5,866 nucleotides of DNA from positions 1-5,866 of IMG/VR virus record IMGVR_UViG_2660237951_000003; one strand, 5' to 3'. The notes beneath the pieces are model-generated. The model did not search any database, was not told the origin of the DNA, and saw nothing but the letters and a program-made list of their open reading frames with translations. Shown one piece after another: positions 1 through 5,866 of the stretch (its first letter is position 1; each line of letters begins with the position of its first letter). The translations under genes and the position numbers were made by a program. The stretch is from a virus. Lineage: Duplodnaviria > Heunggongvirae > Uroviricota > Caudoviricetes.

Positions 1-36
1 AAAAACCATCTTGTTAAATCGGTTCTTTAATATCTC

Positions 37-63
37 ACCCGGCCACCGCGCCGGGTTTTCTTT
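37..63 (+). terminator. Rho-independent terminator ending a transcript that enters from upstream of the window
   Basis: Perfect 7-bp stem ACCCGGC (37-43) / GCCGGGT (50-56), 6-nt loop, then TTTTCTTT. Its position corresponds to a terminator between an immunity region and pL. Confidence 0.6.
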
Positions 64-239
64 GCCTCTCGATCCCCCACCTAAAAAACATAACTCATTG
101 TATTTATTGAAAAACTGATTGATACAACTTGCTAAACCACGCAATCCAGATCTCCCTCAAATCTCTTTATTTATCCTGTCGAATTCCTACAACAAAATAA
201 AACACCATAAGAATCAATACGATATTTGAAAATCAAAAG

Positions 240-285
240 AATTTATCATTTTGCTATTGCCATTAATTTATCATTCCGATAAAGT
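240..285 (+). promoter_or_regulatory. Candidate operator/promoter region (pL/OL-like)
   Basis: Direct repeat AATTTATCATT at 240-250 and 265-275. The second copy lies in a 17-bp dyad TTTATC-attcc-GATAAA (267-283). Possible sigma70 elements TTGCCA (257-262) and TAAAGT (280-285) with 17-bp spacing. AT-rich context about 70 nt upstream of the boxB hairpin. Confidence 0.3.
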
Positions 286-353
286 TTGCCCATCAGCAGG
301 ACGCACTACTCACCAGGGCGGTGAATATACAACGATTCGAATATGAATCTACG

Positions 354-368
354 GCGCTGACAAAGCGC
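354..368 (+). promoter_or_regulatory. boxB-like RNA hairpin (nutL-type N-utilisation site)
   Basis: GCGCT-GACAA-AGCGC, a 5-bp GC stem with a GACAA pentaloop. From memory this is identical to the boxB RNA used with the P22 N peptide. It sits in the leader about 260 nt upstream of the N-like gene. No clear boxA (CGCTCTTTA-like) is seen next to it. Confidence 0.55.
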
Positions 369-629
369 AATAACCAAAGTGAACTTTGGGGTGTGGTGAA
401 GCCAGCTAGTCACTGGCAAGTGCTTACCTACTGTTGAGCGGTGAAGCGCTCCCAACGCTAGCAATAGCGTGGACGAGATGGGGAGCCGCGGGCGATAAGG
501 CCGCCATAACGCGCACGTTGTCGCATGGAAAAATCACTGGGGTGCCGGTTATACCCCTCCGAATGAGACTCAACAAGCTGGAGCTAGACTACCAGCCACC
601 ACACCACCAAAGTTCATCAGGAGGTCTAT

Positions 630-1013
630 ATGACACGCAGAACTCAGTTCAAAGGCAATTCACGTTCTCGTCGTCGTGAGCGTTTAAAGGCAAAGGCATT
701 AGCTAACGGCGTACTGGCCCGCGAAGAAGCAATAAGTTCAGAAGTATTACACCGCCCTACTCTAAGCAGAGCGCAGATTCAGGCTAAAGGTACTCACGAA
801 ACGCCTGAGCGCATAGAAGACGCTAAGCCAATTAAGTTCATGGCACAGGACGTGATCTGGCAACAGAAAGAATACAGACGCAATCTGGAGCGAGCGGCCA
901 TTGTGTACGCGAATGAGTTTGGACATAAGCAACCAGAAACTGGTGTATGTCTTCCAAACGTAGCCATTTACGCGGCAGGCTACCGGAAATCAAAACAACT
1001 GACAGCGAGGTAA
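630..1013 (+). CDS. N-like transcription antitermination protein (P22 gp24 / lambda N family)
   Basis: ATG at 630 with AGGAGG (619-624) at 5-nt spacing. N-terminal arginine-rich motif GNSRSRRRERLKAKALANG resembles the N-protein ARMs (lambda TRRRERRAEKQAQWKAAN; P22 GNAKTRRHERRRKLAIER, both from memory). Size of 127 aa and position just downstream of a boxB hairpin fit. Confidence 0.6.
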   Translation: MTRRTQFKGNSRSRRRERLKAKALANGVLAREEAISSEVLHRPTLSRAQIQAKGTHETPERIEDAKPIKFMAQDVIWQQKEYRRNLERAAIVYANEFGHKQPETGVCLPNVAIYAAGYRKSKQLTAR

Positions 1014-1241
1014 GTGGTGAATCAGACATACATTCCATCATGCTTGAGAAATCTGCCAAAGCAGAAAGCAAAGCCCCGCAAGCAAGCCATAAAGGACGCT
1101 AAGGCAGAGGTTATTGATCAAGCAATACAATTGCTCAGGAAGGAGTTAAGAAGTGGCAAGCTCGAAGGAATGATGATGCCCTATCAGCGCGGATATCTAT
1201 CGGCGATTAGTAAGTTGGAAGTATTGAAGAGTGAATTATGA
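1014..1241 (+). CDS. Hypothetical small lysine-rich protein (75 aa); start is GTG 1014 or 1017
   Basis: ORF abuts the N-like stop (TAA 1011-1013 then GTGGTG). GAGG at 1007-1010 gives poor spacing, so translational coupling is likely. No recognisable family. Confidence 0.45.
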   Translation: MVNQTYIPSCLRNLPKQKAKPRKQAIKDAKAEVIDQAIQLLRKELRSGKLEGMMMPYQRGYLSAISKLEVLKSEL

Positions 1242-1302
1242 ACTATCTGAATTTCCGGATGGTTCATTGTTTTGGCAGCAAACCACTTATTTGAGGTGAA
1301 AT

Positions 1303-1746
1303 ATGAGTACTAATGGATGGTATTACCTGCATCAAAATGGTGATCTTATTTATAAGCCATCACCAGATGCAATTATTGATATTCGTGATTCTGATTTAGC
1401 GGTTTGCTCATGGCCATTAGATGTTAGCAGCCGTAAAACTGCATGGGACATTCTGGTTGAGTCCATGGCTCTTGGTGCCAACAAAGAGCGCGTTAATGAG
1501 CTGGCTAGCAAATGGAATTGCAATGATGATGACGCTGATAAATATGCAGAGGTCGTTGGCGTGACAATCGAGTTAGATGGAAACGTTTGGTGTGCACACG
1601 CTCATAATTTTGTTGATTTACAGGAATCTCCTGCTGGATTCGGCAATACCAAGCTTGAGGCGATGGCTTCTCTTGCTGAGCAACTTGGTTTATCAGGCGG
1701 CCACATGTGGAGAAGTTCATTTTCTGATTTGGTTGAGGCCGCATAG
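1303..1746 (+). CDS. Hypothetical acidic protein (147 aa)
   Basis: ATG 1303 preceded by GAGGTGA (1293-1299). By my count about 23 Asp+Glu against 10 Lys+Arg, including an NCNDDDADKY patch. The stop lies in the loop of an intrinsic terminator. Confidence 0.65.
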   Translation: MSTNGWYYLHQNGDLIYKPSPDAIIDIRDSDLAVCSWPLDVSSRKTAWDILVESMALGANKERVNELASKWNCNDDDADKYAEVVGVTIELDGNVWCAHAHNFVDLQESPAGFGNTKLEAMASLAEQLGLSGGHMWRSSFSDLVEAA

Positions 1747-1760
1747 TCGGCCTTTATTTT
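1736..1760 (+). terminator. Rho-independent terminator directly after the 147-aa ORF
   Basis: Stem GGCCG (1737-1741) / CGGCC (1748-1752), loop CATAGT containing the TAG stop, then TTTATTTTT. Confidence 0.6.
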
Positions 1761-1790
1761 TGGCATAAACAACAGAATAAACACTGCACT

Positions 1791-1818
1791 GTGTATTCAT
1801 TCCAACGAGTGAATACAC
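1791..1818. repeat. Perfect 9-bp inverted repeat GTGTATTCA-n10-TGAATACAC
   Basis: Arms at 1791-1799 and 1810-1818 with a 10-nt spacer, in the intergenic space between two terminators. Could be an RNA hairpin or a dimeric protein-binding site. Confidence 0.5.
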
Positions 1819-1880
1819 GGAGCAATGTCGCTCGTAACTAAACAGGAGCCGACTTGTTCTGATTATTGGAAATCTTCTTT

Positions 1881-1906
1881 GCCCTCCAATGTGAGGGCCT
1901 TTTTAT
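1881..1906 (+). terminator. Second rho-independent terminator
   Basis: Stem GCCCTC (1881-1886) / GAGGGC (1893-1898), 6-nt loop, then CTTTTTATAT. Confidence 0.55.
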
Positions 1907-1919
1907 ATGCATACCAATA

Positions 1920-1940
1920 ACGCTTCACTCGAGGCGTTTT
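1920..1940 (+). terminator. Third terminator-like hairpin (weaker), 30 nt upstream of the cIII-like start
   Basis: Stem CGCTTC (1921-1926) / GAGGCG (1931-1936) with one G-U pair, loop ACTC, then TTTTCGTT. It could instead be an mRNA structure affecting translation of the downstream gene. Confidence 0.35.
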
Positions 1941-1970
1941 CGTTATGCAATCAAACAGAAGGAGCATCCT

Positions 1971-2141
1971 ATGCAACAGTTCGCTATTGCAGGGGCGGCA
2001 TCGGTTCGCCCTTTCAACCCGATTTTATCGGTACAGCATTCACGAAAAAATATTTTAACCGGAGCAGACTTTAAACAACCAAGAATGAAAAGTTTGCTCG
2101 AAAAGCTTTGGGATATTTTGAAACAACAAGGCCGTCCATGA
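1971..2141 (+). CDS. cIII-like small protein (56 aa)
   Basis: ATG 1971 with AGAAGGAG (1957-1964) at 6-nt spacing. The longer TTG-start ORF from 1866 would span a terminator hairpin and is rejected. N-terminus MQQFAIAGA and C-terminal SLLEKLWDILKQQGRP resemble lambda cIII (MQYAIAGW...SLLERITRKL...LIDILNQPGVP, from memory). Position before the recombination genes matches lambda. Confidence 0.45.
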   Translation: MQQFAIAGAASVRPFNPILSVQHSRKNILTGADFKQPRMKSLLEKLWDILKQQGRP

Positions 2142-2296
2142 GTTTTACGGATAACTGGTCAGACGAAGAATTCATTCGTCAGATGAAAGAATTAATCGGT
2201 AACGAAGGAGATATTCATGTCACTTGCAACCACAGTGAAGGAGAGCAAGTTACAGAGACGCATGTACACGCAGAAAGCTCTCTGGTATCGCCATAA
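2138..2296 (+). CDS. Hypothetical small acidic protein (52 aa), translationally coupled to the cIII-like gene
   Basis: ATG 2138 overlaps the TGA of the upstream gene (ATGA). About 11 acidic against 2 basic residues. It occupies the position kil holds in lambda, but no sequence identification is possible. Confidence 0.45.
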   Translation: MSFTDNWSDEEFIRQMKELIGNEGDIHVTCNHSEGEQVTETHVHAESSLVSP

Positions 2297-2395
2297 TGGT
2301 GACCGCGAAGGAATGCGGGTATGCCTTAATTTGTCCCGAGTCGAAGTATTAAACCAGCGTTATTTCCTTGGGCCATGTCCATTCTGAGGTGAATT

Positions 2396-3103
2396 ATGGA
2401 TTTGAATAAATTCGATGAGCCATTCAGCCCTGAAGATATCGAATGGCGAATACAGCAAAGCGGTAAAACACGCGATGGCAAAGTGTGGGCTATGGTGCTG
2501 GCTTATGTCACGAACCGGGCAATCATGAAACGCCTGGACGATGTTTGCGGCAAAGCAGGATGGCGCAATGAATACCGCGATATTCCCAACAACGGCGGCG
2601 TTGAATGCGGCATATCAATAAAGATTGATTCCGAATGGGTAACCAAATGGGATGCTGCTGAAAACACGCAGGTAGAAGCCGTCAAAGGTGGTCGTTCCGG
2701 TGCAATGAAGCGCGCTGCCGTTCAGTGGGGAATCGGTCGGTATCTGTATAACCTTGAGGAAGGTTTCGCACAAACATCTCTCGATAAAAAGCAGGGGTGG
2801 TACAGGGCAAAACTGAAGGATGGAACAGGATTTTACTGGCTCCCTCCATCGCTTCCGGGGTGGGCAATCCCAGCATCAGATAACAAACCATCACCAGAAA
2901 ATACCAACCAGAAATCTCCATCGGTTGACTGCGAACAAATCCTGAAAGACTTCAGCGATTATGCATCAACAGAAACTGACAAGAAAAAACTCATCGAGCG
3001 TTATCAGCGTGACTGGCAATTAATGGCTGGCAACGAGGAGGCGCAGGCTAAATGCGTTCAGGTAATGAACATCAGAGTTAACGAACTAAAACAGGCGGCA
3101 TAA
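2396..3103 (+). CDS. Rad52-like (Rad52/22 / Sak family) single-strand annealing protein with a distinct C-terminal domain
   Basis: ATG 2396 with GAGGTGA (2386-2392). The core motif EAVKGGRSGAMKRAAVQWGIGRYLYN matches the Rad52-family signature (EAV...KRA...G.G..LY), with GKAGWRNEY upstream. A Pro/Ser-rich linker (PPSLPGWAIPASDNKPSPENTNQKSPS) precedes a charged C-terminal domain of about 70 aa. The stop abuts the SSB start (TAAATG). Confidence 0.7.
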   Translation: MDLNKFDEPFSPEDIEWRIQQSGKTRDGKVWAMVLAYVTNRAIMKRLDDVCGKAGWRNEYRDIPNNGGVECGISIKIDSEWVTKWDAAENTQVEAVKGGRSGAMKRAAVQWGIGRYLYNLEEGFAQTSLDKKQGWYRAKLKDGTGFYWLPPSLPGWAIPASDNKPSPENTNQKSPSVDCEQILKDFSDYASTETDKKKLIERYQRDWQLMAGNEEAQAKCVQVMNIRVNELKQAA

Positions 3104-3610
3104 ATGGCAAGCAGAGGCGTAAATAAGGTGATTATCCTTGGTCGGGTAGGACAAGACCCGGAAGTTCGATACTCACCATCAGGAACAGCGTTCGCTAACC
3201 TGACAATAGCCACGTCAGAACAATGGCGAGATAAAAATACTGGCGAGCAAAAGGAATTGACTGAATGGCATCGTGTTGCTGTATCCGGGAAACTGGCTGA
3301 GGTCGTGGGGCAGTATGTGAAAAAAGGTGATCAGATTTATTTCGAGGGAATGCTGAGAACCAGAAAGTGGAAAGACCAGTCAGGGCAAGACCGTTACACA
3401 ACCGAGGTTCATGTCGGAATTAATGGTGTGATGCAAATGCTTGGCGGCATTGGCGACAGCAAACAACAAGCAGCCAGCAGGCAATCACAGAAGCCACAGC
3501 AGCAATCATCACCAGCACAACACAACGAACCTCCGATGGATTTTGACGACGATATACCCTTTGCACCAGTAACTCTCCCCTTCCCTCGTCACGCTATTCA
3601 CGCAATTTAA
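3104..3610 (+). CDS. ssb: Single-stranded DNA-binding protein (SSB), phage-encoded, with a 15-residue extension after the DDDIPF motif
   Basis: N-terminal OB fold is close to E. coli SSB ([18 protein letters not shown]...EWHRV...GQDRYTTEV). Short Gln-rich linker, then [11 protein letters not shown] followed by [15 protein letters not shown] before the TAA at 3608-3610. Confidence 0.9.
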
Positions 3611-3623
3611 TCAGGAGAAAATC

Positions 3624-3920
3624 ATGCCAGCGCCTCAGTATGGTGCGGATGACCCGCGCCGCTGTTCCGGCAATTCCGTATCGGAGGTGCTGGATAAATT
3701 CAGGAAAAACTACGACCAGATAATGTCTCTACCGCAGGAAACGAAAGATGAAAAGGAATTTCGCCATTGTATATGGCTTGCAGAGAAAGAAGAACGCGAG
3801 CGAATTTACCAGACATCAATCCGACCATTCCGCAAAGCCACATATACCCACTTCCCTGAATATATCGACCAGCGCCTGCGTAATTACCGCTCACGCTATG
3901 GCGCTATCAGTAATGACTGA
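3624..3920 (+). CDS. Hypothetical protein (98 aa)
   Basis: ATG 3624 with AGGAG (3613-3617) at 6-nt spacing. Charged and helical in its C-terminal half. No recognised family. Confidence 0.6.
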
Positions 3921-3930
3921 GGAATTTACC

Positions 3931-4098
3931 ATGAGAGGACTTGCATACAATCCCGGCATTCTTCCGGCAGAAATGATTATTCGCCAACGCGTAAGGCCAA
4001 TGCCATCGAGAGAGGAATTGCTTAAGAGAAATAGTTTCGGTTCTGTTAACGACAACAAATATCTGAATGCGATGTGGCGCAAAGGAGGCAACCAGTGA
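3931..4098 (+). CDS. Hypothetical small protein (55 aa); alternative start ATG 3913
   Basis: ATG 3931 preceded by GAGGAA (3919-3924). The in-frame ATG at 3913 has no Shine-Dalgarno sequence. The stop overlaps the next gene's GTG (GTGA). Confidence 0.45.
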
Positions 4099-4349
4099 GT
4101 AATTCAGCACGACTACAGCTTGGTTTTTCACCGCTATCAAAAACTATCATGCTGGCAAAAATGCGCGATGTTGAAGGTGGACGTATGCGCGTTGGCAATG
4201 ATCCAGGTCGTGATGTTACCAATGAGGCTGCTCAATTGGTGTGGCGACTGGTCATGGCTGAAGGTGGTGAGATCGCGTGGGAGCTGGATGATGGTTCTCG
4301 CATGGTGTTGAAGGCAGAAAAGCAGGAGGCAACCAGTGAGCAAGATTGA
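4095..4349 (+). CDS. Hypothetical protein (85 aa, GTG start)
   Basis: GTG 4095 with AAGGAGG (4082-4088) at 6-nt spacing. The ORF-track start at 4074 is also GTG but has no Shine-Dalgarno sequence. No recognised family. Confidence 0.5.
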
Positions 4350-4713
4350 CTATCAGGCACTGCGTGAAATCGCAGCGGCAGCAGTTGGCGCACATGAGCG
4401 CCTTAGTGTTATGCCGCCTGATGACATTTTCGATATCTCACTGGCAGAAGGAACTCAGCTTGATGCAGATATCACTGCCTTGAACGCGCTGAACTCCGCA
4501 GCCAGTCCAGCTACCGTGCTGGCGCTACTGGATGAACTGGAAGCCGCAGAGAAGCGAATCGCTGAACTGGAAGCGAAGCTCGATAGCGCAGATAAATTGC
4601 AAGATAGCGCATTTCGTCATGGTCTTCAGCATGGCTTCAGTTTAGGTCAAACGGATAATCAGGCTGGATTTGAAGAGTGCTTATCTGCCTATGGCACCGG
4701 TAAAGGAGAGTGA
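4336..4713 (+). CDS. Ea22-like (ead/Ea22-family) coiled-coil protein (125 aa, GTG start)
   Basis: GTG 4336 with AGGAGG (4324-4329). N-terminal [13 protein letters not shown] and the heptad-like LALLDELEAAEKRIAELEAKL segment resemble prophage Ea22-like proteins as I remember them. It lies downstream of the recombination genes, as ea22 does in lambda. Confidence 0.45.
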   Translation: MSKIDYQALREIAAAAVGAHERLSVMPPDDIFDISLAEGTQLDADITALNALNSAASPATVLALLDELEAAEKRIAELEAKLDSADKLQDSAFRHGLQHGFSLGQTDNQAGFEECLSAYGTGKGE

Positions 4714-4715
4714 AT

Positions 4716-4988
4716 GTGAAAAATTATCTCAGCAATTTAGCCAGCATGCTTCAGGGGATTGCAGGTGTCATTTCAGACGGCGAGCGGGTGCAGAAAGAGT
4801 GCCCTGCGCACTTAAAGTCAGCACTACTCGAGGCTTCTCACGCGCTAGATGGTCAATCGGTCAGGGTCAATTATCCGCCTAATGGAAAGCCTGAAATTGT
4901 TAATGCCCGCGGACACCATCGACCGCTTACCTTCCGGGAACGAGTGGCAATCCGCTTACTTGGTGGCAGGACGGAGATTCGCCCATGA
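4716..4988 (+). CDS. Hypothetical protein (about 90 aa; start GTG 4716, alternative GTG 4710)
   Basis: AAAGGAGAG (4701-4709) precedes GTG 4716 at good spacing. The stop overlaps the next ATG (ATGA at 4985-4988). Confidence 0.5.
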   Translation: MKNYLSNLASMLQGIAGVISDGERVQKECPAHLKSALLEASHALDGQSVRVNYPPNGKPEIVNARGHHRPLTFRERVAIRLLGGRTEIRP

Positions 4989-5791
4989 GCACTATTACCA
5001 AAGAACTGGCAAAGCTGTTCAGAAAAATTACGAATTCTGAAATTGATGCGGAGGGAAACGCTCATGTTGTTTTATCTCCTGCTGATAGCCTCCTGATTAA
5101 TAATGCGCGTATCGCGCTGGCATCGCTCGAAGCGGAGCCTGTGGCGTGGGCGCACAGATTAATCAACAAGCGTAACGGAGTCGTTCACCCTTGGGTTTAC
5201 GGTAGCGCAGAGGCGTGTCCAAGCGAGGGGGATATCTTCAATATTGAGGTAATGCCGCTCTACACCGTCCCTCCAGCGCCGGTATCTGTGCCCGCTGCGA
5301 TGGAAATGGATGATGACTTTGACAGCGCGTTTGAACACGGAAAAGCTGTCGGCTGGAACGCCTATCGCGCCGCCATGCTTCAGGCCGATGGTACCCTCAC
5401 CAATGAAGGTACCATGCAGTTGTCCGGTAATTCCGAACAAATCGAACCCGTAAGTAATCGTGATGAGTTGCCGTTGGACTATCTGCAAGGTCACAAAGAC
5501 GGCCTTGAATGGGCGGCGCAACTGGCAGAGGCCAATCATCCGCAAACAGGTGACTGGTTATACGACGACCCAATCGATCTTGCCAGGGCGATTCGCAAAG
5601 GTCCGGATATGCCTACTGTTCAGGCTGGCAACTCTCCGGTAACTCCGGATGGTTGGGTTATGGTGCCGAAGGAGCCAACTCAGGCCATGATTAAAGCGTG
5701 GCTATCAGAGATTGCTAACTTTCGCGGTCATGCTGCTGGTTACAGGGCTGCTCTTGAGGCAGCACCGCAGCAGGAGGTTAACCGTGGCTAA
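4985..5791 (+). CDS. Hypothetical prophage protein (268 aa), possibly a modular Ea22-region protein
   Basis: ATG 4985 coupled to the upstream gene. Contains an acidic patch (AAMEMDDDFDSAFEHG) and a C-terminal segment DGWVMVPKEPTQAMIKAWLSEIANFRGHAAGYRAALEAA. No confident family assignment. Confidence 0.6.
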   Translation: MSTITKELAKLFRKITNSEIDAEGNAHVVLSPADSLLINNARIALASLEAEPVAWAHRLINKRNGVVHPWVYGSAEACPSEGDIFNIEVMPLYTVPPAPVSVPAAMEMDDDFDSAFEHGKAVGWNAYRAAMLQADGTLTNEGTMQLSGNSEQIEPVSNRDELPLDYLQGHKDGLEWAAQLAEANHPQTGDWLYDDPIDLARAIRKGPDMPTVQAGNSPVTPDGWVMVPKEPTQAMIKAWLSEIANFRGHAAGYRAALEAAPQQEVNRG

Positions 5792-5823
5792 CCTGCAACT
5801 TGCCGTCAAAGGTGAATAACAAT

Positions 5824-5848
5824 CCTCGCACTCGCGGGGATTTCTTTT
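5824..5848 (+). terminator. Terminator-like hairpin after the last gene
   Basis: Stem CCTCGC (5824-5829) / GCGGGG (5834-5839) with one G-U pair, loop ACTC, then ATTTCTTTT. Confidence 0.4.
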
Positions 5849-5866
5849 ATCTGAACTCGCTACGGC

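Follow-up and report, generated by a model that had tools for sequence, protein, structure and literature searches.

The early-left operon and ORF147

The window, that is, the whole stretch of DNA analyzed here (5,866 nucleotides, positions 1 to 5,866 of IMG/VR record IMGVR_UViG_2660237951_000003), corresponds to the early-left (pL) arm of a temperate phage resembling P22 and lambda. A consensus scan of the window returned a single promoter-like site, at the pL position (257-285), and none before ORF147, bearing in mind that weak promoters could escape such a scan. Upstream of N lies a nutL-like, boxB-like hairpin (GCGCU-GACAA-AGCGC, 354..368, + strand), which we take to match the P22-type boxB; a boxA consensus was not found near it, and matches elsewhere occur at chance level. 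The first gene of the operon encodes an N-like antiterminator (630..1013, +; Pfam N_peptide, 2e-15; phrog_271). It is followed by orf75 (1014..1241, +; phrog_5305), which encodes a small basic protein of 75 residues (+8, pI 9.9) and whose GTG start (1014-1016) abuts the TAA stop of N (1011-1013). This gene belongs to the phage backbone: it is kept whichever cassette comes next and is not co-inherited with ORF147.

ORF147 occupies positions 1303..1746 of the + strand (ATG start, 147 aa), an assignment drawn from the ORF list, homologues, and codon selection, and is preceded by a Shine-Dalgarno sequence, GAGGTG, located 4 nt 5′ of the ATG (1293..1298, +). It is carried by the pL transcript, on the same strand as its neighbors and in the interval between the N-like gene and cIII, in keeping with its initial description as an early gene. 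The stretch beyond the terminators is not empty; it holds the previously overlooked cIII gene (1971..2141, +; 56 aa; phrog_550, E 1e-22), which forms the right-hand end of the N-to-cIII accessory interval. Pfam is blind to this gene, and in some genomes RefSeq labels an ORF of identical type ‘hypothetical protein’. The cIII stop codon overlaps the start of an Arf-like ORF (ATG 2138; listed from TTG 2108 to 2296). Downstream of cIII are encoded, in order, this Arf-like ORF, a Rad52/Erf-like annealing protein, SSB, Abc2 (anti-RecBCD), DUF2737, DUF7446, and an Ead/Ea22-like protein.

The ORF147 product carries a net charge of -13 (23 D+E, 10 K+R) with a pI of 4.41, and the sequence NCNDDDADKY spans residues 72-81, exactly as first described. 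The acidic protein is soluble, and its sequence shows no membrane segment. The original inability to place it in a family was upheld by every resource searched. Neither Pfam nor PHROGs gave a match at E≤0.1-1, the Ral family model included; the PADLOC defense-protein models gave none at E≤1; NCBIfam gave no match; and a lenient Pfam scan of 100 family members produced no recurring one. PDB sequence and profile searches, run with full-length ORF147 and with its C-terminal module alone, yielded solely non-significant ‘DG-x-WCA’ matches to fibronectin type II repeats. ORF147 is nevertheless a real gene, with 205 homologue clusters, 1,092 representative clusters, and a dN/dS of 0.05-0.07.

Terminators and hairpins flanking the gene

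Three terminator-like hairpins follow ORF147, all on the + strand. The first (GAGGCCG...CGGCCUU plus a U tract; hairpin 1735-1754, with tail 1735..1763) overlaps the ORF147 stop codon. The second (GCCCUC...GAGGGC plus CUUUUUAU; hairpin 1881-1898, with tail 1881..1907) has a folding energy of -10.7 kcal/mol, and the third (AACGCUUC...GAGGCGUU plus UUCGUU; hairpin 1919-1938, with tail 1919..1946) one of -9.9 kcal/mol. A further stable hairpin with a U-rich tail, UUGUUUUGG, fills the gap between orf75 and ORF147 (hairpin 1238-1267, with tail 1238..1275, +; -16.2 kcal/mol, z -4.0). It is more stable than each of the three downstream terminators and is part of the backbone, being found also in prophages with other cassettes. 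It could serve as a partial terminator or as a processing or translation-control element, and it could attenuate whatever gene fills the slot behind it.

These features refine the proposed placement of ORF147 between the N-like gene and a terminator cluster. The terminators do lie 3′ of the gene, but ORF147 does not directly follow N, orf75 and the 1238-1267 hairpin standing between the two. The related proposal that the gene is transcribed independently of N fits phages CL707 (100% identical protein) and phiv205-1 (97%), in which N and the gene are separated by only 8 nt. In the window, N-independent expression is not assured, because the stable hairpin and orf75 precede the gene.

Between terminators 1 and 2, in backbone DNA common to other prophages, the + strand can form a long, near-perfect hairpin (1781-1828; 14-bp perfect core, -24.9 kcal/mol, z -5.7) that lacks a U tract and might be processed by RNase III or bound by a protein. 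A boxA-like CGCTCGTA stands behind it at 1829-1836, a pattern whose matches occur at chance level. An Rfam search of the window returned nothing.

A single-gene cassette in a variable accessory slot

Among 5,426 complete E. coli genomes, ORF147 is present in only 12, always annotated as hypothetical, while its flanking DNA is present in 3,328; no homologue was found on plasmids. Comparison with sister prophages, whose N-orf75 region and downstream backbone are 98-99% identical to the window, shows where the exchange took place: homology ends at 1305, in the start codon, and returns at 1734-1737, at the stop codon and terminator stem. In its place the sister E. coli prophages encode unrelated acidic ORFs of ~60 residues (L068 1623-1805; L070 1664-1852) that belong to phrog_37822 or phrog_8831, to which no function is assigned. 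The slot accordingly accommodates at least three interchangeable orphan genes. Carriers with a different N (CL707, phiv205-1, and others) share positions 1271 to at least 1776. ORF147 is thus exchanged between phages as a single-ORF cassette. Because homology with gene-lacking prophages resumes at 1734-1737, the first terminator hairpin (1735-1754) belongs to the backbone and not to the cassette, with only the coding sequence being exchanged.

The N-to-cIII interval here is therefore a variable accessory slot. In lambda and P22 this interval is occupied by ral, and in lambda also by sieB. The initial comparison with the ral/sieB position was apt as far as the variability of the interval is concerned, but the alternatives seen are phrog_37822 and phrog_8831 genes rather than ral or sieB; Ral in particular was considered as an alternative occupant and rejected on these grounds. 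Overall, ORF147 is an accessory gene in the pL operon of this P22/lambda-like phage, immediate-early and dispensable. Two insertion elements were seen at related loci. In the E. coli 19KM2326N prophage the ORF147 homologue is broken near its 5′ end by an IS3 element (L010 2761-3989), as would be expected if the prophage can do without the gene, and in phage CL707 an IS10 lies ~160 nt downstream of the gene (L001 3845-5055).

The term ‘moron’ that had been applied to ORF147 is harder to sustain. A classical moron needs its own promoter, and the consensus scan found none 5′ of the gene; a terminator with a U tract is present directly 3′ (1735-1754), but as part of the shared backbone. The same observations bear on the idea that ORF147 is a true moron in the manner of sieB or rexAB, i.e. 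an exclusion or defense gene expressed from the prophage to protect the lysogen. Its interval is that of sieB in lambda, its distribution is sporadic and cassette-like, and it is followed by a terminator. Yet the sole promoter-like site of the window is at pL, whose transcript is shut off by repressor in lysogens; no PADLOC model matches the protein; and the soluble, acidic product shows no membrane segment in its sequence. We regard this reading as most improbable.

Position within the operon also raises the possibility that ORF147 modulates N-dependent antitermination or the choice between lysis and lysogeny: in several E. coli phages, whose N alleles differ, the gene directly follows N, and it stands just before cIII. 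Against such a role, family members are common in phages from phyla in which they have no N-like gene close by, and few phages with this N and cIII carry ORF147, which is dispensable. The chance that this is its function seems slight.

A family under strong selection across phyla

A search of 5.8 billion proteins retrieved 205 clusters with 54-93% identity to ORF147. Nearly all of these proteins are 144-160 residues long, and every source name shown for them is ‘hypothetical’ or ‘uncharacterized’. A profile search of 1.84 billion cluster representatives extended the family to 1,092 proteins at E≤1e-3 (clustered at 50% identity), 305 of them at E≤1e-10. Homologues are encoded in Enterobacterales, Xanthomonadales, Burkholderiales, Caulobacter, Acidobacteriota, Gemmatimonadota, Spirochaetota, Planctomycetota, and a Negativicute, and wherever the flank suffices the context is a prophage or phage. 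The temperate phages and prophages that carry the family span at least six bacterial phyla. It is new to the databases searched: neither the family nor its C-terminal module is represented in Pfam or PHROGs.

Conservation across this range is high, with 50-60% identity spanning enterobacterial to acidobacterial and planctomycete prophages. Codon-level comparison of homologous loci gave a dN/dS of 0.05-0.07, read against synonymous sites that are saturated already at 74-78% protein identity. The family is under strong purifying selection across phyla.

Close homologues share 23 invariant positions, and the invariant aromatic and Arg residues among them include Y7, Y8, H10, R28, W37, R44, W48, R63, and W71. 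In a 100-member alignment reaching down to 30-50% identity, the core contracts to Y8, L9, L15, W37 (invariant), R44, G58, A59, L67, W71, D77, G114, and A120. This set is largely hydrophobic or structural, with one Arg and one Asp. Because such a core is unlike a catalytic constellation, we infer that ORF147 is a binding protein and not an enzyme.

One kind of binding protein to be weighed here is a small-molecule sponge, which would sequester an immune signal derived from a nucleotide or some other conserved metabolite. If the ligand were universal, conservation across phyla would be accounted for; the close homologues have many invariant aromatic and Arg residues; and ORF147 is a small stand-alone protein expressed early. 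However, conservation of several of those polar residues is lost in the wider family, and the predicted structure bears no likeness to Tad1, Tad2, Acb2, or other solved sponges. A sponge is accordingly very unlikely.

Predicted structure and two mobile modules

An AlphaFold2 model built from a 52-sequence alignment is confident (mean pLDDT 91, pTM 0.86). It comprises strands 5-10 and 15-18, helix 23-28, strand 33-39, and helices 44-56, 61-70, and 75-85, followed by strands 87-92, 95-100, and 111-114 and helices 117-127 and 140-146. Foldseek comparison of the model with the PDB gave a best E of 0.35, and comparison with the BFVD viral models gave nothing at E≤1e-3. The model shows no similarity to solved anti-restriction, anti-CRISPR, or sponge proteins, and the structure-based search for anti-restriction or anti-CRISPR relatives that had been suggested for ORF147 thus came back empty. 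As modeled, the fold has no detectable solved relative.

The model separates into two parts. The N-terminal ‘GWYYLH’ domain (aa 1-85; 1303..1557, +) consists of a beta-beta-alpha-beta unit followed by three helices, and its family-wide conserved residues are Y8, L9, L15, W37, R44, G58, A59, L67, W71, and D77. Within it, the ‘acidic patch’ NCNDDDADKY (aa 72-81; 1516..1545, +) is conserved solely in the core C73-x-D75-x-D77-A78, which caps the N-terminus of helix 75-85. The C-terminal module (aa 87-131; 1561..1695, +) is a beta-beta-beta-alpha unit that in ORF147 reads DGN-x-WCA...LQESPAGFG-x-T-x-x-EA, with the consensus DGN-x-WCA...NLQ-[ED]-[SG]-x-AGFG-x-[TS]-x-x-EA.

Each part also occurs in the company of other sequences. 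The GWYYLH domain also precedes at least one different C-terminal region, itself unannotated. The C-terminal module was found in 233 IMG/VR loci, mostly as stand-alone phage miniproteins of 48-86 residues that form at least 1,322 clusters, and also behind two kinds of Cys-rich/zinc-ribbon N-termini and a short helical N-terminus (the ‘WCALYGENLQDGVAGFGDSP’ subfamily). Its contexts are arrays of small early phage genes. The proteins carrying it gave no match in Pfam, PHROGs, or PDB sequences, and a deep search retrieved unannotated miniproteins only; material on this module comes from IMG/VR loci L071-L149 and proteins P0293-P0412. ORF147 thus combines two independently mobile modules.

The search for informative domain fusions in the family yielded just the KTSC domain (two cases), Cys-rich tails, and unannotated C-termini. 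The C-terminal KTSC domain (PF13619), carried by two distant members (P0165 and P0178), is the only annotated fusion and itself has no assigned function; a few members (P0123, P0124) end in Cys-rich tails. An internal duplication of the two beta-rich halves (‘DIRDSD’ vs ‘DLQESP’) was considered and rejected, with an hhalign probability of 0.8%.

Charge and the DNA-mimic hypothesis

The acidity of ORF147 had led to the proposal that it is a DNA mimic of the Ocr/ArdA type, its acidic surface blocking type I restriction-modification or other DNA-targeting defenses. This member is indeed acidic (net -13, pI 4.4), its gene is transcribed early from pL and lies where lambda and P22 carry ral, and its D75-x-D77 motif is conserved. 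Acidity itself, however, varies across the family. The median net charge is -7 (range -14 to -2) among 52 close members and -4.5 (range -20 to +9) among 100 distant ones, 19% of which are neutral or basic (≥0). Because strong acidity is not a family trait, the argument for a mimic is weak. The conserved residues are mostly aromatic and hydrophobic and do not form acidic arrays, and the model has no fold likeness to any solved mimic. At ~-0.09 charge per residue, ORF147 is presumably also much less acidic than Ocr or ArdA, which counts further against mimicry. The proposal is not borne out by these data, and we consider it improbable.

Genomic neighborhoods

Genomic neighborhood analysis reveals no conserved partner gene: in a clustering of 1,445 ORFs from 68 loci, the commonest neighbor cluster was present in 21 of 49 loci. 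Recombination is the recurrent theme, at least as a descriptive count, with a recombination-module gene (RecT, Erf, Rad52-like, Bet, YqaJ, PD-(D/E)XK, or Gp157) within 6 kb in at least 30 of the 49 loci. The gene overlaps its neighbors by 4 nt in some phages. In Xanthomonas phage Tenjo the homologue overlaps the gene before it, and RecT-exonuclease-SSB begins 3 nt beyond its end; in E. coli JNQH497 gamL-bet-exo lies two genes downstream of it.

These arrangements raise the possibility that ORF147 is a recombination or replication accessory, which would bind or modulate the phage single-strand annealing protein, exonuclease, or SSB, or protect DNA ends. The Tenjo and JNQH497 loci and the frequency of recombination genes point this way, and a conserved target would explain the strong sequence conservation. 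On the other hand, at least five unrelated recombinase families occur nearby, none of them consistently; three terminators and cIII separate ORF147 from the recombination genes in the window; most phages with the same recombination genes do without ORF147; and the early regions of temperate phages carry recombination genes anyway. Weighing both sides, a recombination accessory seems unlikely, if far from implausible.

Counter-defense genes also occur near family members, namely Abc2 (in the window), GamL, Lar, a phage Dam methylase, and a Gad2 homologue. The last of these is encoded directly upstream of the ORF147 homologue in Pseudoxanthomonas prophage CP114978 (L004 7121-7861), where it matches Pfam Gad2 (anti-Gabija), and the two genes occur together again on another contig (L005).

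The large ORFs seen upstream encode TolA-like coiled-coil proteins of low complexity. In enterobacterial phages, a TolA-like coiled-coil protein rich in Glu, Ala, and Arg (phrog_1376) is a recurrent neighbor, seen in 8 loci and named ‘cell envelope biogenesis protein TolA’ in RefSeq (L009 5452-6423, L015 7235-8260, L003 2589-4004). The ‘DUF820’ protein upstream of the Tenjo homologue seems by eye to be of this kind too, but BLAST did not link them.

Proposed function

The reading we prefer, with a probability of roughly 0.4, is that ORF147 binds a conserved factor of the host or of DNA metabolism stoichiometrically when infection or induction sets in, and so serves in host takeover or counter-defense. 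Its gene, contained in the terminator-bounded operon of the N-like antiterminator, would be expressed immediate-early. The product is a small, soluble, two-domain protein with no dedicated partner gene. Its GWYYLH domain probably supplies specificity, and the C-terminal module probably provides a generic surface for protein-protein contact or oligomerization. The target would most likely be a host protein, or a DNA-metabolism factor, that is conserved across bacteria and that ORF147 modifies or neutralizes as soon as infection or induction begins. On this view ORF147 is a host-takeover or counter-defense factor, as opposed to a mimic of the Ocr/ArdA type. The slow evolution of ORF147 suggests a conserved target in preference to an inhibitor chasing a fast-evolving defense protein.

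Several observations weigh against the binder reading. ORF147 has neither homology nor fold likeness to characterized anti-defense or host-takeover proteins, and conservation across phyla with a low dN/dS is unusual for inhibitors of rapidly evolving defense proteins. The adjacency to recombination genes and the 4-nt overlaps fit phage DNA metabolism equally well, the non-enzymatic character is deduced from conservation patterns only, and the 1238-1267 hairpin may limit N-independent expression here.

A bolder version would have ORF147 found a phylum-spanning class of early effectors, in which a GWYYLH specificity domain and a generic miniprotein module together bind a universally conserved bacterial factor (e.g. 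a DNA-repair, replication, or immune hub), with a fold and mechanism without precedent. We consider this conceivable but rather unlikely.

Variable accessory regions between conserved phage genes, the ral region among them, have been surveyed by Silas et al. (bioRxiv 10.1101/2023.04.06.535777; PMC12373910), who found them enriched in counter-defense genes and in triggers of abortive infection. Signature peptides of the ORF147 family are absent from the supplementary files examined of both Silas et al. papers, so the family was apparently not included in those screens. Full-text literature searches by phage name, accession number, and signature peptide returned nothing on the family.

If ORF147 does neutralize a host factor, its conservation (50-60% identity across phyla, dN/dS ~0.06) implies a target common to very different bacteria, which would make it a more general tool or probe than most narrow-spectrum anti-defense proteins. 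The family adds to what is charted of phage ‘dark matter’ a group of more than 1,000 clusters with a confident predicted fold unlike solved structures, together with the larger miniprotein family of the C-terminal module. Breadth, conservation, and an unmatched predicted fold lift ORF147 above the average hypothetical phage gene, with no specific or surprising mechanism indicated. As a single ORF in the cultivable phages phiv205-1 and CL707, it is easy to test.

Comparison with known systems

Ocr of T7 and ArdA resemble ORF147 in being small, acidic, and made at the very start of infection. They differ in fold, no match being detected, and the charge of ORF147 is moderate and variable within its family; its architecture is mixed alpha/beta with two domains.

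The C-terminal module has the beta-beta-beta-alpha core topology (strands 87-92, 95-100, and 111-114; helix 117-127; pLDDT 87-96) of the HicB-N/UPF0150-like fold. Its structural matches to HicB-N/TTHA0281 (UPF0150) and dsRBD-like small alpha/beta modules all fall below usual significance, and ORF147 has no sequence or profile match to them and no toxin partner. No HicA-type toxin gene adjoins family members, and no neighbor is conserved in the 49 loci; a HicB seed taken from locus L007 found no solved relatives; and the basic RNA-binding motif of the dsRBD is absent from ORF147. HicB-like homology of the module is accordingly a weak structural hint drawn from the model.

Close parallels are ral and sieB/gene 17 of lambda and P22, which share with ORF147 the same operon, the same interval from antiterminator to cIII, early expression, and the format of small, variable, single-gene units. 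No sequence or family relation connects them in Pfam or PHROGs, and Ral, at ~66 residues, contrasts with the 147 of ORF147. Moreover, sieB has its own promoter, whereas the consensus scan showed none for ORF147, and ral and sieB are narrowly distributed, whereas ORF147 spans phyla. What is new here is the protein family; what is known is its kind, the variable early accessory genes of temperate phages.
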